Shown here piece by piece: positions 3,510 to 26,599 of a DNA stretch of 33,149 nucleotides. The DNA is from a virus (taxonomy: Duplodnaviria > Heunggongvirae > Uroviricota > Caudoviricetes): the IMG/VR virus record IMGVR_UViG_2526164669_000028. One strand, written 5' to 3'. A program made the position numbers and the translations under genes. The notes below the pieces were generated by a model. The model worked only from the letters and a program-made list of their open reading frames with translations. It did no database searches and was not told where the DNA came from. How positions within the stretch are numbered: the stretch's first letter is position 1; every line of letters starts with the position of its first letter.

Positions 3510-5787
3510 AGCCTCCGGGCGTTTTGTCCCTCCGTCAGCATTTGCTGCAGGCACCGGTAAGGCGTTTACCGGTGCTTATGCATGGAACGCGCCACGCGAG
3601 GCTGTCGGGCGCGAAAGACCCCTTACACGTGACGAGATGCGTCAGGTGCAAGGTGTTTTATCCACGATTAACCGCCTGCCTTACTTTTTGCGCTCGCTGT
3701 TTACGTCACGCTATGACTACATCCGGCGCAATAAAAGCCCGGTGCACGGGTTTTATTTCCTCACATCCACTTTTCAGCGTCGTTTATGGCCGCGCATTGA
3801 GCGTGTGAATCAGCGCCATGAAATGAACACCGACGCGTCGATGCTGTTTCTGGCTGAGCGTGACCACTATGCGCGCCTGCCGGGAATGAATGACAAGGAG
3901 CTGAAAAAGTTTGCCGCCCGTATCTCATCGCAGCTTTTCATGATGCATGAGGAACTCAGCGATGCCTGGGTGGATGCGCATGGCGAAAAAGAATCGCTGT
4001 TTACGGATGAGGCGCAGGCTCACCTCTATGGTCATGTTGCTGGCGCTGCACGTGCTTTCAATATTTCCCCTCTCTACTGGAAAAAATACCGTAAAGGACA
4101 GATGACCACGAGGCAGGCATATTCTGCCATTGCCCGTCTGTTTAACGATGAGTGGTGGATTAGTCAGCTTAAAGGCCAGCGTATGCGCTGGCATGAGGCG
4201 TTACTGATTGCTGTCGGGGAGGTCAATAAAGACCGTTCTCCTTATGCCAGTAAACATGCCATTCGTGATGTGCGTGCACGCCGCCAGGCAAATCTGGAAT
4301 TTCTTAAATCGTGTGATCTCGAAAACAGGGAAACAGGCGAGCGCATCGACCTTATCAGTAAGGTGATGGGCAGTATTTCTAATCCTGAAATTCGCCGGAT
4401 GGAGCTGATGAACACCATTGCCGGTATTGAGCGTTACGCCGCCGCAGAAGGTGATGTGGGGATGTTTATCACGCTGACCGCGCCGTCAAAGTATCACCCG
4501 ACACGTCAGGTTGGAAAAGGCGAAAGTAAAACCGTCCAGCTAAATCACGGCTGGAACGATGAGGCATTTAATCCAAAGGATGCGCAGCGTTATCTCTGCC
4601 GTATCTGGAGCCTGATGCGCACGGCATTCAAGGATAATGATTTACAGGTCTACGGTTTGCGAGTCGTCGAGCCACACCACGACGGAACGCCGCACTGGCA
4701 TATGATGCTTTTTTGTAATCCACGCCAGCGTAACCAGATTATCGAAATCATGCGTCGCTACGCGCTCAAAGAGGATGGCGACGAAAGAGGAGCTGCGCGA
4801 AACCGTTTTCAGGCAAAACATCTTAATCGGGGCGGTGCTGCGGGGTATATCGCGAAATACATCTCAAAAAATATCGACGGCTATGCACTGGATGGGCAGC
4901 TCGATAACGATACCGGCAGACCGCTGAAAGACACTGCAGCGGCTGTTACCGCATGGGCGTCAACGTGGCGTATCCCGCAATTTAAAACGGTTGGTCTGCC
5001 GACAATGGGGGCTTACCGTGAACTACGCAAATTGCCTCGCGGCGTCAGCATTGCTGATGAGTTTGACGAACGCGTCGAAGCTGCACGCGCCGCCGCAGAC
5101 AGTGGTGATTTTGCGTTGTATATCAGCGCGCAGGGCGGGGCAAATGTCCCACGCGATTGTCAGACTGTCAGGGTCGCCCGTAGTCCGTCGGATGAAGTTA
5201 ACGAGTACGAGGAAGAAGTCGAGAGAGTGGTCGGCATTTACGCGCCGCATCTCGGCGCGCGTCATATTCATATCACCAGAACGACGGACTGGCGCATTGT
5301 TCCGAAAGTGCCGGTCGTTGAGCCTTTGACTTTAAAAAGCGGCATCGCCGCGCCTCGGAGTCCTGTCAATAACTGTGGAAAGCTCACCGGTGGTGATACT
5401 TCGTTACCGGCTCCCACACCTTCTGAGCACGCCGCAGCAGTGCTTAATCTGGTTGATGACGGTGTTATCGGATGGAATGACCCGGAGGTCGTGAGGGCGC
5501 TCAGGGGCGCATTAAAACACGGCCTGAGAACATCAAATCGTCAGCAAAGAAACGGAAGCCCGTTAAAACCGCATGAAATAGCACCATCTGCCAGACTGAC
5601 CCGGTCTGAACGATTGCAAATCACCCGTATCCGCGTTGACCTTGCTCAGAACGGTATCAGACCGCAGCGATGGGAGCTTGAGGCGCTGGCGCGTGGGGCA
5701 ACCGTAAATTATGACGGGAAAAAATTCACGTATATGGTTACTAATGAGTGGTTCGGATTTCAAGATGAAGTGTCATTTTTCATGTAA
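3499..5787 (+). CDS. A: Replication initiation endonuclease gpA (rolling-circle nickase)
   Basis: ORF 3457..5787; start set at MAVKASGRFVPP (3499), matching the recalled P2 A N-terminus; 762 codons versus 761 aa in P2; HxH-type motif (HHDGTPHWHMM) present. Confidence 0.92.
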   Translation: MAVKASGRFVPPSAFAAGTGKAFTGAYAWNAPREAVGRERPLTRDEMRQVQGVLSTINRLPYFLRSLFTSRYDYIRRNKSPVHGFYFLTSTFQRRLWPRIERVNQRHEMNTDASMLFLAERDHYARLPGMNDKELKKFAARISSQLFMMHEELSDAWVDAHGEKESLFTDEAQAHLYGHVAGAARAFNISPLYWKKYRKGQMTTRQAYSAIARLFNDEWWISQLKGQRMRWHEALLIAVGEVNKDRSPYASKHAIRDVRARRQANLEFLKSCDLENRETGERIDLISKVMGSISNPEIRRMELMNTIAGIERYAAAEGDVGMFITLTAPSKYHPTRQVGKGESKTVQLNHGWNDEAFNPKDAQRYLCRIWSLMRTAFKDNDLQVYGLRVVEPHHDGTPHWHMMLFCNPRQRNQIIEIMRRYALKEDGDERGAARNRFQAKHLNRGGAAGYIAKYISKNIDGYALDGQLDNDTGRPLKDTAAAVTAWASTWRIPQFKTVGLPTMGAYRELRKLPRGVSIADEFDERVEAARAAADSGDFALYISAQGGANVPRDCQTVRVARSPSDEVNEYEEEVERVVGIYAPHLGARHIHITRTTDWRIVPKVPVVEPLTLKSGIAAPRSPVNNCGKLTGGDTSLPAPTPSEHAAAVLNLVDDGVIGWNDPEVVRALRGALKHGLRTSNRQQRNGSPLKPHEIAPSARLTRSERLQITRIRVDLAQNGIRPQRWELEALARGATVNYDGKKFTYMVTNEWFGFQDEVSFFM

Positions 5788-6195
5788 AACACTTTAAAAT
5801 TCAATGCAATGAAAGCATATCCATGTCTCATTGATATGCCTTTCAGTTATTATATATTTGTTTTATATGAAAAAATATCATATGCAGGGGGAGCAAATAC
5901 AACGGTTTACTTGTTATGATGCAAACATTGGTTAGTTAGTGAGATATATCGCCATCAATTGGGTATTTTTACCCGTGGAAAGTTAACGCTTTCTAACACT
6001 TACCCCGCGCAACGCCCCTGCCAGCGACAGGAGTCACAGGATCAGGAGGTATGGCGTATGGGTATTCGAACCCTTTGGGCGACCAAGGGTTCGTGGAGCA
6101 GGGGGCTAGTGCTGTTCAATCTCATCCTTATGAGGGCGAACCATAGTGTTGGAGCAGACATACCGTTTGCACACTATGGGCATAAGGAGCAAATC
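5788..6195 (+). ncRNA. Candidate structured non-coding leader (possible retron msr/msd RNA) upstream of the RT cassette
   Basis: About 400-nt AT-rich non-coding gap after A. Hairpins: GCATATC...GATATGC (5817-5840), GAACCCTT...AAGGGTTC (6067-6091), CCATAGTGT...ACACTATGG (6141-6178, 9-bp stem). Boundaries and function are not resolved by eye. Confidence 0.25.
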
Positions 6196-6351
6196 ATGAA
6201 GAATGATAAATTAACCAACGAACAGCAGGCGCAGAACAAGTCAAACCTGAAAAAGTGGGCTGGTTACGCTTGGAAATTAATCAAATGGGGTATTAGACTG
6301 TTTGATTTAGTTACTCGAGCACTGGACTACTTCGAAGGGGGTGATGAGTAA
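6196..6351 (+). CDS. Small hypothetical protein (51 aa), first ORF of the RT cassette
   Basis: ATG preceded by AAGGAG at 7 nt spacing; MKNDKLTNEQQAQNKSNLKKWAGYAWKLIKWGIRLFDLVTRALDYFEGGDE. The annotated 5959..6351 ORF is treated as a spurious 5' extension. Could instead be part of the ncRNA. Confidence 0.4.
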   Translation: MKNDKLTNEQQAQNKSNLKKWAGYAWKLIKWGIRLFDLVTRALDYFEGGDE

Positions 6352-6375
6352 TGCGTCCTCCCTAGTTTCAATAGC

Positions 6376-6696
6376 ATGGAGTTGCCTATGTTACATAAAG
6401 CCCTTCGTTTAATAAGGCAATACCATAAAGAATCAATAGTTGAGTTATCTTCATCTTTAGGTATTCCAAAAGACAAAATAGTATCGCTTGAAAGCGGAGT
6501 TTGGTCACCGTCGATTGAAGTCTTAGAGCGTTACGCCTCCCATTTCGACATACCAGTATCCTCTTTAGTATTCTTTTCGGAATCATTAGGCACGCAAGGC
6601 CGTTTGTCTAAGCGATTGCGTTTAAATTTAGCCGGTAAAGTTCTGGATGTTCTGGAGTGGGTAAGTAATAAAAATGAAAAAACGGAAAAAGCTTAA
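6376..6696 (+). CDS. XRE-family helix-turn-helix protein associated with the retron-type RT
   Basis: 106 aa; HTH signature (...IVELSSSLGIPKDKIVSLESGVWSPSIEVLERYASHF...); overlaps the RT start by 23 nt, suggesting co-translation. The start may be the second ATG at 6388. Confidence 0.7.
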   Translation: MELPMLHKALRLIRQYHKESIVELSSSLGIPKDKIVSLESGVWSPSIEVLERYASHFDIPVSSLVFFSESLGTQGRLSKRLRLNLAGKVLDVLEWVSNKNEKTEKA

Positions 6697-7624
6697 AGTT
6701 AATACTAAAAATAAATCTTATGACATAATGGATTCGCCATTTTATAAACTCAAAAGTAAAAGAAAACTGGCGAATTTGCTTTGTGTTAGTCTTGATGATT
6801 TATACTCTTTGAGAAAAGATGAAGGAAACTATTCCGTTTTTGAGCAGCTTTCTAAAAAAGGGAAAGCACGAAAAATACAAAAGCCTTTAGAAAAACTAGA
6901 ACTTGTACATACACGAATTGCAAGTTTGTTATCGCGGATTGCTTTGCCAGAATATCTGCACTCAGGGAAGAAGAAGTGCTCTAATGTGACGAATGCTAAA
7001 GCTCATCTTAATAATGAAAAGATGATGACAACAGATATTAAAGCTTTTTTTCCATCAACTACAAGAGGGATGATATTTTCTTTTTTCTTTTCGGTGATGA
7101 AAATGTCATCTGATGTTGCTGATGTTTTGTCCCACATATGTACTTGTCATGACCGATTGCCAACAGGTAGTCGAATCAGTATGCCGTTGGCATATTTTGC
7201 AAATTCAAGAATGTTTGGTGAAATATATCAACTTTGCCAAAAGTTACGAGTTAACATGACTGTTTATGTTGATGATCTCACTTTTTCAGGTAGTAACGTA
7301 AATCGATTGTTCTGCGCTGTAATTCGTAAGATCGTTAATAAGCATGGGCATGTTATACACCCAACGAAAACAAAACTATATGCCAGAGATAAGCCTAAGT
7401 TGGTAACTGGAGTTATTGTATTAGGCAATGCATTAAAAGTTAGGAATGAGCAGCATTTTTTGATGGCTAGGGAAATAGATTATTGGAAAATAATTAAAGA
7501 CGCCGAAAATGCGAGAGAAACAATCATTGCCAAAAAGCTCTTTGGTCGTTTGCATTCAATGGGAGTGATTGAGCAACGTTACAAATCTAAGGTGCTTACT
7601 TTAAAGGCTAATACTGCAAATTAA
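6674..7624 (+). CDS. Retron-type reverse transcriptase (316 aa)
   Basis: Contains NAKAH (NAxxH), DIKAFFPST, LPTGSRISMPLA (LPQG-like), YVDD catalytic motif and VTG triplet (KLVTGVIV); the order and spacing resemble recalled retron RT Ec86. AT-rich relative to the phage backbone. Confidence 0.85.
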   Translation: MKKRKKLKVNTKNKSYDIMDSPFYKLKSKRKLANLLCVSLDDLYSLRKDEGNYSVFEQLSKKGKARKIQKPLEKLELVHTRIASLLSRIALPEYLHSGKKKCSNVTNAKAHLNNEKMMTTDIKAFFPSTTRGMIFSFFFSVMKMSSDVADVLSHICTCHDRLPTGSRISMPLAYFANSRMFGEIYQLCQKLRVNMTVYVDDLTFSGSNVNRLFCAVIRKIVNKHGHVIHPTKTKLYARDKPKLVTGVIVLGNALKVRNEQHFLMAREIDYWKIIKDAENARETIIAKKLFGRLHSMGVIEQRYKSKVLTLKANTAN

Positions 7625-7670
7625 CATATTGAATGTATTGCATAATAGCATCAATAATGAAAATGACTTT

Positions 7671-7722
7671 GGCGTTAGTAACGCCGCCAGTGCAGGAATT
7701 TACTTTCGGTGCAGGCGGCGTT
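7671..7722. terminator. Hairpin cluster between the convergent RT and 145-aa genes (putative bidirectional terminator)
   Basis: AACGCCGCC (7680-7688) pairs with GGCGGCGTT (7714-7722), a 9-bp stem; nested GGCGTTAGTAACGCC element at 7671-7685. Confidence 0.35.
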
Positions 7723-7748
7723 GATTAGAAACCTCAGAAAGTAGTTAG

Positions 7749-8186
7749 CTATGAAGCTGACGTCACAAAATTAACACCAAGAGTCAACAGGTTTGTCACT
7801 GCTCCAGCAATGACACCTGGAGTCCCGTCTTTTACTGCACTGATAATTTTATCTCCCATCGTTTCATTACCGCCAAGTGCTTCGGGTTTTTTGTTGAGCA
7901 CCGCGAGTGCTTTCTCGGTCAGGCGCACATCATGAAAACCAGTCTGATGGTCTGTTCCGTACAGAATATAGCCGTTTTCGCTTAGGAAAGTGAATGTGCC
8001 ATCAACCACACTACGCAACTGATTCAGTGCTTTCATTTCTGGTGAGTTAAGTTGGTCAAAGTAGTCATCAGGTAACGCGGCGTTAAATTTTTTGTAGGTG
8101 ATGACTTGTGGTACAGGAAAGTTATCCCATAGCACCGCAAAGATTTCAGCCGTCTGCTGGTTAAATAATTCGAGGTTTTTGGACAT
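7749..8186 (-). CDS. Hypothetical protein (145 aa) with Gly/Ala-rich hydrophobic C-terminus; cargo gene convergent to the RT cassette
   Basis: Minus ORF with AAGGG RBS 7 nt upstream; C-terminal ...DGTPGVIAGAVTNLLTLGVNFVTSAS suggests a membrane-interacting tail; AT-rich. Confidence 0.6.
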   Translation of the reverse strand: MSKNLELFNQQTAEIFAVLWDNFPVPQVITYKKFNAALPDDYFDQLNSPEMKALNQLRSVVDGTFTFLSENGYILYGTDHQTGFHDVRLTEKALAVLNKKPEALGGNETMGDKIISAVKDGTPGVIAGAVTNLLTLGVNFVTSAS

Positions 8187-8379
8187 GCATAATTCCCTTT
8201 CATCAATTAAAGACCCTTATGCCGACTGGGCAAAGAGACTCACTGTAATGGCCTCAAATAACGACCTGAGTTCCCGCGAAGTGGAAAGCTACACCGAAAA
8301 AATGGTCGAGCAAGCCAGTAAAGATGAGCTTACGGTCGTTATCAAACACCTTTTAAACCACATCAGAATGAACAAATAA
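8185..8379 (+). CDS. Small hypothetical ORF (65 aa)
   Basis: Internal Met of ORF 8098..8379; GAGG about 9 nt upstream; its start overlaps the start codon of the divergent 145-aa gene, so it may not be real. Confidence 0.3.
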   Translation: MHNSLSSIKDPYADWAKRLTVMASNNDLSSREVESYTEKMVEQASKDELTVVIKHLLNHIRMNK

Positions 8380-8516
8380 AAGGATCTTTATCAATATGTT
8401 ATCTCTCGTTTATGAAAATCCGTGGACGACGGTTTTTTTGCTGATTGTAGCCACTTGTTGCCTTACCAGTATTATTGGCGCATTGCGCGACAAGTAACCA
8501 CAATGAAGCTGACTCA

Positions 8517-20573: not shown

Positions 20574-22703
20574 ATGAGCACAAAATTCAGAACCGTTATC
20601 ACCACTGCCGGTGCAGCAAAGCTGGCAGCGGCAACCGCACCGGGAGGGCGGAAGGTCAACATTACCACGATGGCCGTCGGGGATGGCGGTGGTAAATTGC
20701 CTGTCCCGGATGCCGGACAGACCGGGCTTATCCACGAAGTCTGGCGACATGCGCTGAACAAAATCAGCCAGGACAAACGAAACAGTAATTATATTATCGC
20801 AGAGCTGGTTATTCCGCCGGAGGTGGGCGGTTTCTGGATGCGTGAGCTTGGCCTGTACGATGATGCGGGAACGTTAATTGCCGTGGCGAACATGGCCGAA
20901 AGTTATAAGCCAGCTCTTGCCGAAGGCTCAGGGCGTTCGCAGACCTGCCGTATGGTCATCATCGTCAGCAGTGTGACCTCAGTGGAGCTGACCATTGACA
21001 CCACAACGGTGATGGCGACGCAGGATTACGTTGATGACAAAATTGCAGAACATGAACAGTCACGACGTCACCCGGACGCCTCGCTGACCGCAAAAGGTTT
21101 TACTCAGTTAAGCAGTGCGACCAACAGTACGTCTGAAACGCTCGCCGCAACGCCGAAAGCGGTAAAGGCCGCATATGACCTTGCTAACGGGAAATATACT
21201 GCGCAGGATGCCACTACGGCGCGAAAAGGCCTTGTTCAGCTCAGTAGTGCGACCAACAGCACGTCTGAAACGCTCGCCGCAACGCCGAAAGCGGTAAAGG
21301 CCGCATATGACCTTGCTAACGGGAAATACACTGCACAGGACGCCACCACCGCGCGAAAAGGCCTTGTTCAGCTCAGTAGCGCCACCAACAGCGATTCTGA
21401 AACGCTTGCGGCAACACCAAAGGCGGTTAAGACAGCGTATGACCTTGCTAACGGGAAATACACTGCACAGGATGCCACCACAGCGCGAAAAGGTCTTGTC
21501 CAGCTAAGTAGCGCCACCAACAGTGATTCTGAAACGCTTGCGGCCACGCCAAAGGCGGTAAAGGTCGCGTATGACCTTGCTAACGGGAAATACACTGCAC
21601 AGGATGCCACCACAGCGCGAAAAGGGCTTGTTCAGCTCAGTAGCGCCACCAACAGTGATTCGGAAACGCTGGCCGCAACACCAAAAGCGGTGAAGTCTGC
21701 CTATGACAATGCTGAAAAACGTCTTCAGAAAGATCAAAATGGCGCGGATATTCCTGATAAAAGATTATTCCTGCGCAATATTGGAGCAACAAATTCAACA
21801 ACCATGTCTTTTAGTGGTGGTACAGGATGGTTCAGGCTGGCAACTGTAACCATGCCACAGGCCAGTTCCGTGGTTTACATAAGTCTGATTGGTGGTGCCG
21901 GATATAATGTTAACTCCCCTATGCAGGCTGGTATATCTGAACTTGTTCTTCGTGCGGGAAATGGAAATCCAAAAGGTCTTACTGGTGCGTTATGGCGACG
22001 GACCTCGGTTGGATTTACTAATTTTGCATGGGTGAATACATCCGGTGATACCTATGATGTTTATGTTGAAATAGGTAATTACGCCACAGGTGTTAATATT
22101 CAGTGGGATTATACCAGTAACGCCAGCGTAACGATTCATACATCACCAACTTATACAGCGAATAAACCAACAGGCCTGACAGATGGAACTGTATATGTAA
22201 TTTACAGTTCGCACATTAAACCGACTGCTGCTGATGTTGGGGCGTTATCATTATCTGGAGGTCAATTGAATGGTGCACTGGGCATCGGTACATCCAGTGC
22301 TCTTGGCGGTAACTCGATTGTTTTGGGTGATAATGACACGGGCTTTAAACAAAATGGCGACGGTAATCTGGATGTTTATGCTAATAACGTCCATGTTATG
22401 CGCTTTGTCTCCGGTAGCATTCAAAGTAATAAAACCATAAATATTACGGGGCGTGTTAATCCCACAGATTACGGTAACTTTGATTCCCGCTATGTCCGGG
22501 ATATCCGGCTTGGTGGTGCTGCCACATACAAACCTGCGAACAATGGCATGACATGGACACATCAGGCACCGTCCGGGTGTGTATATTCTGGCATTATTGT
22601 TCAGGATACCGGCTCAAACTCTGCCGATAACATTGGTGGCGTATATTACAGACCGGTTCAGAAATACATTAACGGGACATGGTATAACGTGGCACAGGTA
22701 TAA
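20574..22703 (+). CDS. H: Tail fibre protein gpH with expanded internal repeats and a divergent C-terminal domain
   Basis: 709 aa; conserved N-terminus (MSTKFRTVITTAGAAKLAAATAPGG...), then five tandem 44-aa repeats, then a lower-GC C-terminal domain. Confidence 0.9.
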   Translation: MSTKFRTVITTAGAAKLAAATAPGGRKVNITTMAVGDGGGKLPVPDAGQTGLIHEVWRHALNKISQDKRNSNYIIAELVIPPEVGGFWMRELGLYDDAGTLIAVANMAESYKPALAEGSGRSQTCRMVIIVSSVTSVELTIDTTTVMATQDYVDDKIAEHEQSRRHPDASLTAKGFTQLSSATNSTSETLAATPKAVKAAYDLANGKYTAQDATTARKGLVQLSSATNSTSETLAATPKAVKAAYDLANGKYTAQDATTARKGLVQLSSATNSDSETLAATPKAVKTAYDLANGKYTAQDATTARKGLVQLSSATNSDSETLAATPKAVKVAYDLANGKYTAQDATTARKGLVQLSSATNSDSETLAATPKAVKSAYDNAEKRLQKDQNGADIPDKRLFLRNIGATNSTTMSFSGGTGWFRLATVTMPQASSVVYISLIGGAGYNVNSPMQAGISELVLRAGNGNPKGLTGALWRRTSVGFTNFAWVNTSGDTYDVYVEIGNYATGVNIQWDYTSNASVTIHTSPTYTANKPTGLTDGTVYVIYSSHIKPTAADVGALSLSGGQLNGALGIGTSSALGGNSIVLGDNDTGFKQNGDGNLDVYANNVHVMRFVSGSIQSNKTINITGRVNPTDYGNFDSRYVRDIRLGGAATYKPANNGMTWTHQAPSGCVYSGIIVQDTGSNSADNIGGVYYRPVQKYINGTWYNVAQV
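21093..21708 (+). repeat. Five tandem copies of a 132-bp (44-codon) in-frame repeat within H
   Basis: Unit KG(F/L)(T/V)QLSSATNS(T/D)SETLAATPKAVK(A/T/V/S)AYDLANGKYTAQDATTAR begins at 21093, 21225, 21357, 21489 and 21621; the last copy is partial. Confidence 0.85.
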
Positions 22704-22706
22704 TTT

Positions 22707-23234
22707 ATGCAGCATTTGATAAATATAACAGCGGGTAATCCAAAAACGGTTGAACAATATCAATTGACAAAGGGTTTTGATGTTGTCTGGTTTTTTTCAG
22801 AAGATGGTAAGAACTGGTACGAAGAACAAAAGTATTTTGCTGATGACACGATAAAAATAGCGTACGACAAAGATAATATTATCCGCTATGTGGAAAAGGA
22901 TGTGACAGCTATCAGACCAGATGGATTAAGTGTGGTTGAAGTGCCGGATATTACTGCTAACCGACGGGCGGACATTTCAGGGAACTGGATGTTTAAGGAC
23001 GGTACAGTGATTAAACGAATTTATACGGCAGAGGAATTGCAGCAGCAGGCAGAAAATCGGAAAGCCAGACTTCTTGCTGATGCTGAATCCGTGATTTTGC
23101 CGCTGGAACGCGCGGTCAGGCTGAACATGGCAACAGATGAGGAACGCACACGGCTGGAGGCTTGGGAACGCTACAGCGTTCTGGTCAGTCGTGTGGATCC
23201 TGCAAATCCTGAATGGCCGGAAATGCCGCAATAA
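22707..23234 (+). CDS. G: Tail fibre assembly chaperone gpG
   Basis: 175 aa immediately downstream of H; lower GC, like the H C-terminus. Confidence 0.85.
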
Positions 23235-23268
23235 GTTGTATAAGCTCTGGTGTGAGATTACATATCTA

Positions 23269-23310
23269 TGGCACAGAGTAAAGCCTAATCTGACAGTCCA
23301 CTCTGTGCCA
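23269..23310. repeat. Inverted repeat hairpin downstream of G
   Basis: TGGCACAGAGT (23269-23279) and ACTCTGTGCCA (23300-23310), 11-12 bp perfect arms with a 20-nt loop; no following T-run. Confidence 0.5.
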
Positions 23311-23427
23311 TTACCGGACATACTGAGCAGAAGGCTAAAAAGGACGCTTTCAGGACATATAGCAAGGGAGCAAGGATGAAAGAATTAACCCAGTATATTT
23401 AATGTTTCAATCATGATAGTTTCTGAA

Positions 23428-23454
23428 TTAAAGGGGGCTACCCACCCCCTTTAA
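23428..23454. terminator. Palindromic hairpin abutting the stop of the 92-aa minus-strand gene
   Basis: TTAAAGGGGG ... CCCCCTTTAA, 10-bp stem; ends one base before the minus-strand stop codon (23455-23457). Confidence 0.45.
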
Positions 23455-23733
23455 TTACTTGTTCCACTCAGTCAGAATTTGGTTACTAACTTCATCTGAG
23501 AGATTGTACCAATAAGCTGAGTTATTGGTTGCGTCTACAACAATAAGCTTATCATCACTATCCATGACCGCCCTCACAATTTTGGCTGCATCCTCGGCAG
23601 AGTAACTACAGTTAACATACCAGTTCGATTCAGTTGTTAAAGCCCAATTTCCTAAAGATTTAATTGCATCATACACAGCCGCATAATCTTTCGTTTTAAT
23701 GAGGTCGTAAGTAATAAATAAATTATTAGCCAT
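23455..23733 (-). CDS. Hypothetical protein (92 aa), cargo gene in the G-FI hotspot
   Basis: Minus ORF with GGAGA RBS 7 nt upstream; AT-rich; no recognisable motif. Confidence 0.55.
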   Translation of the reverse strand: MANNLFITYDLIKTKDYAAVYDAIKSLGNWALTTESNWYVNCSYSAEDAAKIVRAVMDSDDKLIVVDATNNSAYWYNLSDEVSNQILTEWNK

Positions 23734-23761
23734 AAATCATCTCCCAAAGGACAAAGAAAAA

Positions 23762-23779
23762 AGCGCCTAGAAAGGCGCT
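23762..23779 (-). terminator. Hairpin plus T-run between the two minus-strand cargo genes (possible attenuator or terminator)
   Basis: AGCGCCT agaa AGGCGCT, 7-bp stem; on the minus strand it is followed by TTTTTTCTTTGTCC and then the RBS of the 92-aa gene. Confidence 0.4.
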
Positions 23780-23785
23780 CATATA

Positions 23786-23965
23786 TTAATGGTCTTTAAG
23801 CCATGCCTGTACTTTCTTAGCCGAATGACCTACAGCCTGTACGGCTTGAACAAGTTTGGCCTCGCTAACTCCAAACTTTTCAGCCCAATCACGTCTCTCG
23901 TAATCCTGTTTGATACTTATTAAATCATTGTCAGGTGTACCGATTTTGGTCTTATCATCAGCCAT
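23786..23965 (-). CDS. Small protein (60 aa), possibly DUF3606-like
   Basis: Internal start MADDKTKIGTPDNDLISIKQDYERRDWAEKFGVSEAKLVQAVQAVGHSAKKVQAWLKDH with GAGGA RBS 9 nt upstream; the motif (...Y.RDWA.KFGVS...L..AV..VG.SA.KV...L) resembles my recollection of DUF3606; not verified. Confidence 0.5.
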   Translation of the reverse strand: MADDKTKIGTPDNDLISIKQDYERRDWAEKFGVSEAKLVQAVQAVGHSAKKVQAWLKDH

Positions 23966-24456
23966 TTTACTGATTCCTCGTGATACAGGCTTATACCTGC
24001 CCATTAGTTATATGGCTCCCGTGCTGCTTCGTAAACGTTCAATAATCAAACAATTGACACTGATCATAAAACCAGTTAGAGGATTTGACTCTAGCTTGGA
24101 TATATGATGATGCCACCCCTTTTATATTGTTGTCGGTAACTCACAGACATTGAACTCATGCTGGTGAGTGAAAGGCTACATAAACGTCCAACATTTAAAC
24201 TGCCATCAGCAGCGTTCGCGGAGCAATATACAGGCTTCGTATTCAATCCTTGCCCTACGAGAAACCCTAGCCGTTGCCTCGTTTTCAAGTGTCAGGAAGT
24301 TCTTTGTCAGACCTCATACAGTCTTGGGTTGGGTGAGGTGCATGGGGGAAGTTGAAGCCTTAACTGTTGAGGTAAATCGAACCATAAGTGTGCAATTTTT
24401 CAAGCCCGGCGCTATTTTAGTATTGAAAACAATTCGTACGCCCCCAAGGACAACTC

Positions 24457-25077
24457 ATGATCGAATTTATCGCAGAGCATATAAACACAGTAAGTACACT
24501 TATCTCCGCTTTGGCAGCATTGCTAACAGCAGTTGCTACATTTTTCTTGTGGAGAGTAACAAGGCTATTAGCAGACGAGACAAAAAGGATGGTTGACGCA
24601 TCAGTTCAACCTCATGTCGTTGTGACTCTTGAACCAAATTCTTGGGCTGCTTTTTATTTTGATATCAATATTGCTAATACCGGAAATGCCCCAGCCTATG
24701 ATATTGAAGTCGGATTTAATCCCCCACTGGTTAATGCAGAACATAGAAAAAATAAAGGTATACCATTTAGCAAGGTTAGCGTATTGAAAAACGGCCATTC
24801 CCTCAACAGCAGTCTTTGTAAGTATGACCAGATTAAAGATCAAGTTTATTCTGTTAGTATTAGCTGGTCTAAACAGCCGGGCTCAACTGAAAGAGAGCGG
24901 AATGAGTATTCTTATGATATGGCTTCTTTCGAGGGGGTTAGCTACTTAGGTGCAAGGAGTCCAATGACACAGATAGCTGAGCAGATGAAAAAGATTAGAG
25001 AAGACTGGAGGCCGATTTCCCAGGGAAGCAAAAAAATTAAAACAGACAACTATAATTCAAGTGGCAGAGCAGAGTAA
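24457..25077 (+). CDS. Hypothetical membrane-anchored protein (206 aa), cargo gene in the G-FI hotspot
   Basis: AAGGA RBS 8 nt upstream; N-terminal hydrophobic helix (TVSTLISALAALLTAVATFFLW); AT-rich; no recognisable catalytic motif. Confidence 0.6.
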   Translation: MIEFIAEHINTVSTLISALAALLTAVATFFLWRVTRLLADETKRMVDASVQPHVVVTLEPNSWAAFYFDINIANTGNAPAYDIEVGFNPPLVNAEHRKNKGIPFSKVSVLKNGHSLNSSLCKYDQIKDQVYSVSISWSKQPGSTERERNEYSYDMASFEGVSYLGARSPMTQIAEQMKKIREDWRPISQGSKKIKTDNYNSSGRAE

Positions 25078-25284
25078 CAACGAGCACGTGAAGAGTGGTA
25101 TCAGACCACTGTAAAGAAATGGGATAAAGAAAGGCAAAAAGATAACTAATACAATTAACCTACTCCCCATAAATTAGCATACCACAATCTCAGGTTCCTC
25201 TTCGCTCAAAACAGGCTGTCAGATTTGATAGCGTTTTGGCTATGTAAATTGTCAGTCGGAAAATGAGTGAGTACAAATCAGGAC

Positions 25285-25312
25285 AGGCGGGCGAATTGCC
25301 CGCCTTTTCTTT
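25285..25312 (+). terminator. Rho-independent terminator upstream of the FI late operon
   Basis: AGGCGGGC gaatt GCCCGCCT, 8-bp stem followed by TTTTCTTT. Confidence 0.6.
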
Positions 25313-25408
25313 ATCTGTTGTTTCATCCACTGACCAGCCAGGTCAAATAGCGTCTCATGCACTGCCCAACAGAAAATAGTTGCACCCATTAACCACGGAG
25401 TTAAACGG

Positions 25409-26599
25409 ATGAGTGACTATCATCATGGCGTGCAGGTGCTGGAGATTAACGACGGCACCCGCGTCATTTCCACCGTATCCACTGCCGTTGTCGGCATGGT
25501 CTGTACGGCCAGCGATGCGGATGCGGAAACCTTCCCCCTCAATAAACCTGTGCTGATTACCAATGTGCAGAGCGCAATTGCAAAGGCCGGTAAAAAAGGC
25601 ACGCTGGCGGCATCGTTGCAGGCCATCGCCGACCAGTCAAAACCGGTCACCGTTGTCGTGCGTGTGGAAGACGGCACCGGCGACGACGAGGAAACGAAAC
25701 TCGCGCAGACCGTTTCCAATATCATCGGCACCACCGACGAAAATGGTCAGTACACCGGACTGAAAGCCCTGCTGGCGGCGGAGTCGGTAACCGGCGTTAA
25801 ACCGCGTATTCTCGGTGTGCCGGGACTGGACACCAAAGAGGTGGCTGTTGCACTGGCATCAGTCTGTCAGAAGCTGCGCGCTTTCGGATATATCAGCGCA
25901 TGGGGCTGTAAGACCATTTCCGAGGTGAAAGCCTACCGCCAGAATTTCAGCCAGCGTGAACTGATGGTTATCTGGCCGGATTTCCTCGCATGGGATACGG
26001 TCACCAGTACCACCGCCACCGCGTATGCCACCGCCCGTGCGCTGGGTCTGCGTGCCAAAATCGACCAGGAGCAGGGCTGGCATAAAACGCTGTCCAACGT
26101 TGGGGTAAACGGTGTTACCGGCATCAGCGCATCTGTATTCTGGGATTTGCAGGAGTCCGGCACCGATGCTGACCTGCTTAACGAGTCAGGCGTCACTACG
26201 CTGATTCGCCGCGACGGTTTCCGATTCTGGGGTAACCGTACCTGCTCTGATGACCCGCTGTTCCTCTTTGAAAACTACACCCGCACCGCGCAGGTGCTGG
26301 CCGACACGATGGCTGAGGCGCACATGTGGGCGGTGGACAAGCCCATCACCGCAACGCTGATTCGCGACATCGTTGACGGCATCAATGCCAAATTCCGTGA
26401 GCTGAAAACAAACGGCTATATCGTGGATGCGACCTGCTGGTTCAGCGAAGAATCCAACGATGCGGAAACCCTCAAGGCCGGAAAACTGTATATCGACTAC
26501 GACTATACACCGGTGCCTCCTCTTGAAAACCTGACCCTGCGCCAGCGTATTACCGATAAATACCTGGCAAATCTGGTCACTTCGGTTAACAGCAATTAA
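25409..26599 (+). CDS. FI: Tail sheath protein gpFI
   Basis: 396 aa, MSDYHHGVQVLEINDGTRVISTVSTA...; matches recalled P2 FI. Confidence 0.92.
   Translation: MSDYHHGVQVLEINDGTRVISTVSTAVVGMVCTASDADAETFPLNKPVLITNVQSAIAKAGKKGTLAASLQAIADQSKPVTVVVRVEDGTGDDEETKLAQTVSNIIGTTDENGQYTGLKALLAAESVTGVKPRILGVPGLDTKEVAVALASVCQKLRAFGYISAWGCKTISEVKAYRQNFSQRELMVIWPDFLAWDTVTSTTATAYATARALGLRAKIDQEQGWHKTLSNVGVNGVTGISASVFWDLQESGTDADLLNESGVTTLIRRDGFRFWGNRTCSDDPLFLFENYTRTAQVLADTMAEAHMWAVDKPITATLIRDIVDGINAKFRELKTNGYIVDATCWFSEESNDAETLKAGKLYIDYDYTPVPPLENLTLRQRITDKYLANLVTSVNSN

Follow-up and report, generated by a model that had tools for sequence, protein, structure and literature searches.

The slot between the tail genes of P2-like prophages is known for carrying accessory genes, and the question raised by the locus described here is what such a gene encodes, how the seemingly empty DNA upstream of it arose, and whether either is likely to serve in phage defense. 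The locus lies in a 33,149-nt viral sequence (IMGVR_UViG_2526164669_000028), hereafter referred to as the window. An earlier note on this DNA had described an AT-rich gene for a 206-aa membrane-anchored cargo protein in the G-FI defense hotspot, with a plausible role in superinfection exclusion or abortive infection, behind a ~450-bp non-coding region that might contain divergent promoters or a small RNA. We confirmed the open reading frame (ORF) itself, which runs on the plus strand from an ATG at 24457 to 25077 and encodes 206 aa in the window. Its ortholog is named DUF8453 protein in RefSeq, and we use that name for the gene.

An imported cassette in the accessory slot of a P2-like prophage

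The placement in the G-FI hotspot was borne out by the genes on either side. The slot is bounded by the tail-fiber assembly gene G (22707-23234; Caudo_TAP, E 1e-34 by profile search) and by the tail sheath gene (25409-26599), and is the P2 Z/fun (G-FI) accessory locus, which has been counted among the accessory/defense loci of P2 (PMC13586616, PMC9122126). It is occupied by an imported cargo cassette of 1.9 kb (~23299-25208), and the gene is, as had been supposed, horizontally acquired cargo encoding a single-pass membrane protein. The low G+C content was likewise confirmed, being 0.40-0.43 over 23501-25000 versus 0.55-0.58 in the flanking tail genes. With other P2 phages, the only common stretch is 25198-25400, with P2 backbone homology starting at 25198, and the cargo ends are identical in three genomic contexts (two P2 lineages and one Pantoea chromosome). 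The slot is flanked by a backbone inverted repeat, whose 10-nt left copy, AATCTGACAG (23287-23296), sits in the loop of a 12-bp hairpin (23268-23279/23300-23311) and is the counterpart of the "left inverted repeat" in GenBank AJ512682, while the right copy, CTGTCAGATT (25216-25225), lies next to the cargo end at ~25208; the score of this pair was reached by 7 of 500 shuffled sequences. A fragment of a tyrosine integrase gene forms the left cargo end; it covers the final 41 codons and has an in-frame stop (23301-23423, plus strand; 71% identity to the NCTC11023 integrase by tblastn, E 2e-14). Adjacent to this remnant is a perfect 12-bp G+C-rich hairpin (23426-23456), which likely serves as a terminator in both directions, for the G operon and for the minus-strand gene pair, and a terminator-like hairpin with a T run (25285-25305, plus strand), part of the conserved P2 backbone, closes the cargo transcription unit before the sheath gene.

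The ORF list also confirmed that the DUF8453 gene is divergent from two small minus-strand genes. The first (23455-23733) encodes a 92-aa protein of PHROG 1090, a family with no assigned function, and is located ~10 kb from the DUF8453 gene in a donor-like element; its association with the membrane protein is one of position, not of function. The second is a DUF3606 gene (23786-24004; Pfam PF12244, E 4e-18). Its longest ORF is 72 aa, PHROG 10779 aligns to residues 14-72 of that ORF, and the RefSeq call is 180 nt. The true start is most likely at 23965, giving a 59-aa protein that matches both RefSeq and the PHROG profile, in which case the gap ahead of the DUF8453 gene would be 23966-24456.

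The upstream gap is the scar of a collapsed donor element

The ~450-bp gap is real, and its sequence is a mosaic: part is what remains of a gene, part the junction left by a deletion, and part donor DNA that hitch-hiked along. After a spacer come the gene remnant (138 nt), the junction segment (87 nt), and a leader of 138 nt, which moves together with the DUF8453 gene. The claim that it contains no convincing ORF holds for intact genes and fails for 24094-24231 on the minus strand, where the final 46 codons of an endonuclease-VII-family gene survive as a 3' remnant (61% identity by tblastn, E 1e-8), collinear with residues 98-142 of the ortholog. The intact ortholog matches PF02945 (E 3e-6; score 27.4 bits, cutoff 23.6), and intact copies of the gene are found in the related sequences L105/L019 and L016. 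A 312-bp deletion junction is located at 24229-24231, where L104 and L105 carry exactly 312 additional bases; the missing DNA comprised the first two thirds of the endonuclease-VII gene, its start codon, and 34 nt upstream. Thus, the supposed non-coding region is a scar, because this later deletion destroyed the endonuclease-VII gene. The 87-nt segment that follows (24232-24318), to which no function is assigned, joins two donor arms; it is common only to other copies of the cassette, including L105, and has no match in L016 or L010. Two overlapping ORFs in this region, 24168-24596 (142 aa) and 24158-24355, were rejected, as they match no family and span mosaic junctions.

The two arms can be assigned separately, with 23310-24222 exhibiting 87% identity to L016/L139 and 24319-25061 exhibiting 83% identity to L010. 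Both halves of the cassette occur on a single element in E. coli NCTC11023, with resolvase, DEAD helicase, capsid, and HNH genes between them. The cassette arose by collapse of an integrase-bounded element of this type, ~15 kb long, which resembles a phage satellite because it also carries capsid and HNH genes, a likeness drawn purely from RefSeq product names (capsid, HNH, integrase). Of the two donor arms, one is int'-hyp92-DUF3606-endonuclease VII and the other is 91 nt of backbone plus the DUF8453 gene; loss of a ~10-kb core joined them, and the 312-bp deletion came later. Hotspot cargo is swapped among P2 phages, satellites, and islands (PMC13586616, PMC9122126; Nilsson et al. 2004, pmid 12949155, as cited in those papers on this subject), and the present locus likewise has 83-87% identity with an integrase-bounded element as well as a slot flanked by inverted repeats. 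It differs in that both donor arms were captured together after core loss, leaving three gene relics.

DUF8453 is a large stand-alone family under purifying selection

The DUF8453 gene is preceded by a Shine-Dalgarno sequence, AAGGA, at 24446-24450, 6 nt ahead of the ATG. Its product matches positions 1-206 of the 230 in PHROG 11802 (E 1.5e-128) and is 99% identical to P0001. An identity of 99% over 206 residues was also found for P2-EC53 ORF1 (CAD54906, "putative lysogenic conversion protein") and for phage R18C QDP43518, for which the slot, leader, and neighbors are all as in the window; in comparison with both, the window copy is 24 codons shorter and carries the substitution D203G. The P2 Z/fun gene has the same insertion point between G and FI and both genes are accessory and non-essential (PMC13586616), whereas the Z/fun protein is unrelated (299 aa versus 230 aa, BLASTP E 1.5). 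A first search yielded 235 family matches, and the family comprises 1701 clusters at 50% identity with lengths of ~180-250 aa, widespread in Alpha-, Beta-, and Gammaproteobacteria. With a dN/dS of 0.13-0.17, DUF8453 is a large stand-alone family under purifying selection. The membrane protein had no match in NCBIfam, PADLOC, or Pfam (in a set lacking a DUF8453 model), a profile search of PDB sequences returned nothing below E 0.1, and a literature search on P2-EC53, DUF8453, and the protein accessions found no paper. Homology to a structural or lysis protein, which the earlier note had regarded as incompatible with its defense reading, was not detected either.

The proposal of a single N-terminal transmembrane helix agrees with both the sequence and the AlphaFold model (pLDDT 85). 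The sole hydrophobic segment of the protein is VSTLISALAALLTAVATFFLW (residues 12-32), which has no charged residue and, in the model, lies within one long helix spanning residues 2-49. The membrane helix (~12-32) continues into a conserved juxtamembrane helix, followed by an Ig-like sandwich (54-154) and a helix at 169-188. Invariant positions are found in the long helix (A27, T28, L31, W32, R33, V34, T35, L38, A39, E41, T42, and R44) and in a second cluster, the NTGN motif, which we take to be a turn motif like that of CARDB. Foldseek returned CARDB-like matches to 2kl6 and 3idu (E 0.01-0.03), and the DUF8453 sandwich has a fold-level resemblance, with E-values that are not significant, to CARDB-type sandwiches and to the cytoplasmic Ig-like domain of inward-rectifier K+ channels (KirBac3.1). 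Unlike KirBac3.1, DUF8453 has one helix rather than two and neither a pore helix nor a selectivity filter, and it matched neither Pfam CARDB (PF07705) nor IRK at E up to 1. Lys plus Arg amount to 3.6 after the membrane helix versus 0.3 before it, with the same bias in 102 of 102 family sequences. From this charge bias, the predicted topology is N-out/C-in, with a short periplasmic N-terminus and a cytoplasmic soluble domain. The highly conserved membrane and juxtamembrane helix would anchor the Ig-like (CARDB-like) sandwich and an R/K/E-rich tail at the cytoplasmic face of the inner membrane.

The window copy is truncated and may be inactive

The length of 206 aa is correct for the window, but it is not the natural length of the protein. 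Close relatives are all 230 aa, and the frame in the window runs 24 further codons to 25149 beyond a private stop at 25075-25077 (E207stop, GAA-to-TAA). This stop and D203G (25064) are the sole window-private changes in the ORF (25064-25077, plus strand) and are only 11 nt apart. The former last 24 codons (25078-25149), now untranslated, encode most of a C-terminal helix (model residues 201-229). The complete DUF8453 architecture of membrane helix, sandwich, helix 169-188, and C-terminal helix with a DR motif is consequently absent from the window copy, which may be weakened or dead. An intact 230-aa allele (WP_001572865.1/QDP43518.1) is present elsewhere, for example in phage R18C.

This raises the alternative that the gene in this prophage is a decaying relic, inactivated by the nonsense mutation and D203G whatever the rest of the family does. 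Both private changes look damaging: the lost helix is confidently modeled (pLDDT 83-94), at least 90% of family members have D203, and neither change occurs in any of 98 complete E. coli genomes carrying the gene. The window allele may do nothing because this helix and a near-invariant Asp are missing, and the adjacent endonuclease-VII and integrase genes are already relics. However, no part of the family varies more than the tail, Salmonella has a natural variant of 215 aa (P0058; 13 member sequences, 34 contigs), the window copy retains an undamaged membrane helix and sandwich, and a lone stop codon could be a sequencing error. We consider decay of the gene in this prophage a credible alternative, although one that falls somewhat short of being probable.

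Phage exclusion is a tentative best guess for the intact protein

For the intact protein, our best guess, and a tentative one, is that it excludes phages, acting on the inner side of the membrane. It would be a single-gene exclusion factor whose cytoplasmic sandwich captures, at the membrane, some component of a phage or other mobile element entering the cell, and its conserved helices could then either block the bound component there or assemble and compromise the membrane. This suggestion is drawn from the company the gene keeps, as it is found in prophage/island cargo slots beside AbiJ, restriction-modification, and DUF3800 genes, next to integrases. Among P4 hotspots, six of eight randomly chosen unknown loci were protective, and 15-32% of the unknown hotspot proteins of P2 are predicted to be antiviral (PMC13586616). 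Conversely, PADLOC v2 profiles identified 0 families at E up to 1, and we found neither an experimental report nor a defense phenotype for any family member in the literature. Small phage- or prophage-encoded inner-membrane proteins that exclude phage on their own include T4 Sp and Imm, lactococcal Sie2009, and HK97 gp15. DUF8453 has no detected sequence or specific fold similarity to these proteins and differs from membrane-anchored exclusion proteins in the predicted cytoplasmic location of its soluble domain. Taken as a whole, the account of a collapsed cassette, a scar gap, a truncated DUF8453 gene, a cytoplasmic architecture, and single-gene exclusion is in our judgment moderately probable.

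A role other than defense, such as lysogenic conversion of the membrane or envelope, stress tolerance, or a service to the element itself (entry exclusion of conjugative elements, or element maintenance), is possible, if rather doubtful. It would fit the wide distribution of the family in Alpha-, Beta-, and Gammaproteobacteria, where some loci lie between housekeeping genes, as well as the original GenBank label of lysogenic conversion protein and the lack of a defense-database match. Some loci also contain ParB and DUF932 genes (both Pfam), which suggests conjugative elements, of which such loci would be typical. Across 68 species-level loci, the immediate neighbors were heterogeneous (including housekeeping genes such as ribBA, rodA, queA, and ABC transporters), so that gene neighborhood says little about function outside the Enterobacterales, and no conserved partner gene was found in these loci, with a resolvase in four and a 108-129-aa gene in three. 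Against a non-defense role, Enterobacterales copies are always located in hotspot slots occupied elsewhere by restriction-modification, AbiJ, or DUF3800 genes, and the membrane protein contains no transporter, enzyme, or envelope-biogenesis motif.

Classical superinfection exclusion, in which a periplasmic soluble domain blocks DNA injection or cell-wall penetration, seems improbable. T4 Sp and Sie2009 do share the layout of an N-terminal anchor plus a soluble domain, and DUF8453 is prophage cargo, but the soluble domain is predicted to be cytoplasmic by the positive-inside rule, which argues against a periplasm-facing model given that the charge bias is opposite to its expectation in every family member. 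Likewise, the N-region lacks the positive charges typical of a signal peptide, and an Arg/Lys-rich tail (R 15.5%, K 9%) is atypical of an exported domain.

Regulatory signals and a conserved 91-nt block in the gap

The features that had been proposed within the gap fared poorly. The hexamer TTGACA is located at 24054-24059 (not 24053-24058) and has no matching -10 element; a sigma-70 scan of 23200-25500 (two hexamers with at least 9 of 12 positions matched and 16-18 nt spacing) yielded 0 sites versus 5.5 expected, leaving the suggested divergent promoters without a site above threshold. The best candidate promoter appears to be a weak one at 24390-24418 on the plus strand (-35 GTGCAA at 24390-24395, 17-nt spacer, -10 TATTTT at 24413-24418), which matches 7 of 12 positions, below the scan threshold, and has TATCTT as its -10 element in L018 and L010. 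An Rfam scan of 23200-25500 at E up to 10 returned only sub-threshold noise, the best hits in 24005-24456 scoring 17.4 and 15.5 bits versus gathering scores of 72.9 and 95. Folding z-scores showed no excess over shuffled sequences (+0.40 for the plus strand, -0.14 for the minus strand, and +0.28 for the leader), and the hairpins are therefore no more than expected by chance, nor was there a sign of the suggested small RNA. No tandem repeats, such as those of a type III toxin-antitoxin (ToxIN-like) leader, occur in 24005-24456, the sole array being a 13-nt repeat of 1.9 copies inside the ORF. Two further candidates were set aside: an invertible promoter, for which only short inverted repeat pairs were found that are probably due to chance, and an Ogr-type dyad, TGT-N12-ACA, whose single copy in the gap (24128-24145) is attributable to chance because the window has 3 versus 8.5 expected.

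The first part of the 138-nt leader is a 91-nt block of donor backbone (24319-24409, plus strand) that starts with the hairpin CAGYC-TTSG-GRYTG and is found in the donor element also without the DUF8453 gene. Its p-distance is 0.18-0.20, compared with a synonymous p-distance of 0.32-0.49 in the adjoining gene. Conservation is thus about twice that of synonymous sites, which the scar model leaves unexplained, and the block may have a function of its own. It adjoins a variable cargo slot beside a serine recombinase, in which we found DUF8453 plus AbiJ, DUF8453 plus DUF3800, an XcyI restriction-modification system, or a DUF3800 set. Metagenome and viral scans, which might have revealed a dispersed element, gave only the two known contexts; the 26 instances have only two upstream contexts and two main downstream ones, and because of these few contexts the block behaves as island backbone and not as a dispersed element.

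It is quite unlikely that the gap, or the 91-nt block within it, functions as a small RNA, as a riboregulatory leader, or as a site for a recombinase, with a role in controlling the membrane protein gene or in cargo exchange. The block's conservation irrespective of the DUF8453 gene and its position exactly at the edge of the variable slot are in favor of such a role, as is its 5' hairpin, which survives in the window through two transitions whose products can pair as G-U, though solely on the plus strand. However, beyond the poor Rfam and folding scores, no terminator follows the hairpin, the breakpoint lacks a palindromic crossover-like site, the island's 191-aa resolvase is absent from the prophage, the few contexts fit island backbone, and the distal 300 nt of the gap are gene remnant and junction.

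Implications for P2 hotspots and the DUF8453 family

Overall, the gene is unremarkable as hotspot cargo, and as a candidate for a defense assay it is a modest one. The locus also illustrates cleanly how cargo in P2 hotspots originates, here from a satellite-like element that collapsed to two accessory arms and was then eroded, and it indicates that a long hotspot gap regarded as "non-coding" deserves a search for gene relics before it is called an RNA gene. A bolder and rather speculative reading is that DUF8453 is a new, very widespread single-gene immunity module of mobile elements. Its cytoplasmic Ig-like sensor, held at the inner membrane, would detect a phage or plasmid component entering the cell, and the membrane helix would then switch from an inert state to a membrane-disrupting or entry-blocking assembly. 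Separately, and just as speculatively, the 91-nt block next to the serine recombinase could be a site-specific point of cargo exchange in satellite-like elements. Should the intact protein prove protective, it would add a defense architecture consisting of a single-pass anchor and a cytoplasmic Ig-like domain with no enzyme, of which we know of no previous description, and ~1,700 sequence clusters across the Proteobacteria would gain a function.

A P2-like prophage and its cargo slot

A complete P2-like (Peduovirus) prophage makes up the window. In the interval bounded on one side by the tail-fibre assembly gene G (22707-23234; Caudo_TAP, E 1e-34) and on the other by the tail sheath gene FI (25409-26599), only 25198-25400 is common to P2, Wphi and other relatives; ~23299-25208 is therefore cargo in the slot that P2 uses for Z/fun, which is counted among the P2 accessory/defence hotspots (PMC13586616; PMC9122126). 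G+C drops to 0.40-0.43 across this cassette, compared with 0.55-0.58 outside it, which bears out the description of its membrane-protein gene (the DUF8453 gene) as AT-rich. On either side of the slot in the window lies one copy of a 10-nt inverted repeat of the backbone (AATCTGACAG / CTGTCAGATT; 23287-23296 and 25216-25225), whose score was reached by 7 of 500 shuffles and which agrees with the 'left/right inverted repeat' features of GenBank AJ512682. A perfect 12-bp hairpin (23268-23311) adjoins the insertion, its right arm being the first 12 nt of the cargo. One possibility for this hairpin/inverted-repeat site is an ancestral terminator; another is the recombination site that AJ512682 proposes for the Z region. 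Both cassette ends are identical in this P2 lineage, a second P2 lineage (L099-L103) and a Pantoea chromosome.

Two other features of the prophage were observed. Tail fibre protein H (20574-22703) carries ~5 tandem copies of a ~44-residue unit, …KGLVQLSSATNSxSETLAATPKAVKxAYDLANGKYTAQDATTAR…, and a second low-G+C stretch (5501-8500; 0.34-0.45) follows the replication gene, with ORFs at 5959-6351, 6376-6696 and 6674-7624 on the plus strand and 7749-8186 on the minus strand; it is probably the other P2 cargo hotspot (tin/old position).

Origin of the cassette

Both halves of the cassette occur on a single ~15-kb integrase-bounded element of E. coli NCTC11023 (NZ_LS483297.1, 926300-941200), located between a tRNA-Gly gene and an integrase gene. 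From one end, this element encodes a hypothetical gene, a DUF3800 gene and a DUF8453 gene (protein 89% identical to the family reference sequence), then a resolvase (serine recombinase) and a DEAD helicase, then a capsid gene, an HNH gene and others, and finally endonuclease VII, DUF3606, a 92-aa gene and the integrase. The prophage cargo corresponds to this element minus its ~10-kb core. The element itself resembles a satellite that encodes a capsid and has a defence slot, 'satellite-like' here resting on RefSeq product names. Accessory genes lie at both of its ends, and its kin at tRNA-Leu swap the recombinase-side cargo (restriction-modification, AbiJ and DUF3800 sets).

The ~450-bp gap ahead of the DUF8453 gene (24005-24456) is a mosaic. 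Positions 23310-24222 match the NCTC11023 locus at 87% identity, where the minus strand encodes an endonuclease-domain gene, a DUF3606 gene, a 92-aa gene and then the integrase gene; a PF02945 match over the curated cutoff identifies the endonuclease-domain protein as a recombination endonuclease VII. In the window, only its last 46 residues persist (24094-24231; 61% identity, E 1e-8). Two contigs with the same cassette (L104 and L105) and Pantoea leporis (L019) carry a full-span gene and exactly 312 extra bases at 24229-24231; thus, in the E. coli lineage a deletion took out the initial two thirds of the gene, start codon included, together with 34 nt upstream. There follow a junction segment (24232-24318) seen only in copies of the cassette and a stretch (24319-25061) that is 83% identical to an Enterobacter roggenkampii island, beginning 138 nt before the ATG. 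At the left edge of the cargo lies an integrase remnant (23301-23423), consisting of the last 41 codons with an in-frame stop. The minus-strand genes at 23455-23733 (92 aa, PHROG 1090; weak Cas2-like matches only, E 0.02-0.15) and 23786-24004 (DUF3606) form a conserved pair with a terminator-like hairpin between them (23780-23761), and accompany the endonuclease VII gene in the donor element. As they lie ~10 kb from the DUF8453 gene in the donor-like element, they are not its partners.

The earlier note had pointed to candidate promoter elements and hairpins in the gap and suggested that it may hold divergent promoters or a small RNA, an idea that is not supported. A TTGACA hexamer does exist, one base from the position given (at 24054-24059), but it lacks a -10 partner, and a sigma-70 scan of 23200-25500 returned 0 sites versus 5.5 in shuffles. 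Folding was no better than that of shuffled sequence on either strand, Rfam gave no match, and the gap has no tandem repeats. The best promoter candidate for the DUF8453 gene is a weak one, with a putative -35 of GTGCAA (24390-24395) and a putative -10 of TATTTT (24413-24418) that reads TATCTT in two relatives. An exact TGT-N12-ACA dyad, the Ogr-type late-promoter motif, lies inside the endonuclease VII remnant (24128-24145); it is most likely due to chance, since the window, where 8.5 such sites would be expected, has only 3.

Within the gap, conservation outside the cassette is confined to a 91-nt block (24319-24409). In related tRNA-Leu islands, this block borders a variable slot, with a divergent 191-aa serine recombinase ~320 nt away. 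The slot is occupied by DUF8453+AbiJ, DUF8453+DUF3800, an XcyI restriction-modification system or a DUF3800 set, and homology between islands with and without DUF8453 stops at window position 24409. The block's 26 instances in genomes, metagenomes and viral contigs have only two upstream and two main downstream contexts; this is how donor backbone carried along into P2 would behave, and not an independent element. From the island copies the block differs by a p-distance of 0.18-0.20, roughly half of what synonymous sites in the adjacent gene show (0.32-0.49), and a small 5' hairpin survives via two G-U-compatible transitions. In view of this conservation, the block could have a regulatory or recombination-site role, with low probability.

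A truncated member of a large family

The 206-aa ORF at 24457-25077 exists, with a good Shine-Dalgarno (AAGGA) 6 nt upstream, but it had been taken as full length, and the frame runs 24 codons past the TAA at 25075. Close relatives are all 230 aa (99 complete E. coli genomes, phage R18C, P2-EC53 and 18 IMG/VR contigs). Compared with the six closest, the only private changes are D203G and E207stop, which were found in none of the 98 complete E. coli genomes matching an 81-nt segment; D203 is conserved in ≥90% of the family. The window allele may be impaired, as a confidently modelled helix and a near-invariant Asp are gone, while a natural 215-aa variant known in the family counts against this. 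The dN/dS of 0.13-0.17 versus three diverged copies indicates a real gene under purifying selection.

A first search found 235 relatives and a profile search 1701 clusters at 50% identity, of which 537 had E-values of 1e-10 or lower. Each of the best 150 is a stand-alone protein; lengths run from ~100 to 340 aa and in most cases fall within 180-250 aa. At species level, the loci come from Alpha-, Beta- and Gammaproteobacteria. The protein has no match in Pfam, NCBIfam, PADLOC or PDB sequences, and P2's own Z/fun-slot protein is unrelated to it. The claimed N-terminal membrane helix held up as a single 21-residue uncharged segment, and the AlphaFold model of the 230-aa form (pLDDT 85) has a helix (2-49), a seven-strand sandwich (54-154) and helices 169-188 and 201-229. 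Invariant residues cluster in the C-terminal half of the membrane helix and the juxtamembrane segment (A27, T28, L31, W32, R33, V34, T35, L38, A39, E41, T42 and R44), and also in an NTGN turn. The median N-tail is 10 residues long, and the C-tail is rich in Arg, Glu and Lys. On average, the 15 residues that follow the helix contain 3.6 Lys+Arg, versus 0.3 before it, a bias present in 102 of 102 members; the positive-inside rule accordingly predicts a cytoplasmic sandwich and tail.

A 76%-identical variant is common in E. coli (L013-L015, e.g. GCA_047262485.1). Where its locus was read, transposase genes lie directly upstream, an AbiJ_NTD4 gene is convergent downstream, and the called protein is 190 aa, ~80% of the query; given the transposase genes and this coverage, it may be insertion-sequence-interrupted.

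Likely function

Across 68 loci, the DUF8453 gene has no conserved neighbour: a resolvase turns up at 4 of them and a 108-129-aa gene at 3, and the genes directly beside it are as varied as integrases, ParB, methyltransferases, UvrD-like helicases and housekeeping genes. The 108-129-aa gene, which has no Pfam match and is absent from the window, is convergent just downstream in several Enterobacterales (Biostraticola, Pectobacterium, Pantoea and Klebsiella; L020-L022, L006 and L011). In Enterobacterales, the DUF8453 gene is always in a hotspot slot of the kind that restriction-modification, AbiJ or DUF3800 genes occupy elsewhere. Our tentative best guess is that the protein acts as a single-gene exclusion factor on the cytoplasmic side of the inner membrane, where the sandwich would bind an invader component and the conserved helix would have a role too. 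A non-defence accessory role is about as likely as this exclusion model, and the analysis neither supports nor refutes the superinfection-exclusion or abortive-infection function proposed in the earlier note. The predicted topology weighs against a periplasm-facing exclusion mechanism.

GenBank has contained the DUF8453 gene and the slot from the P2-EC53 record (AJ512682) onwards, and in phage R18C the slot's two small ORFs were called morons of unknown function, with the 693-bp ORF unmentioned (PMC6823313). What this analysis adds is how the cassette arose, the recognition of three gene relics, the window's private truncation, and a predicted topology and fold for the protein. The DUF8453 gene is ordinary hotspot cargo from an uncharacterised, very large family; as a candidate for a defence assay it is reasonable but does not stand out.
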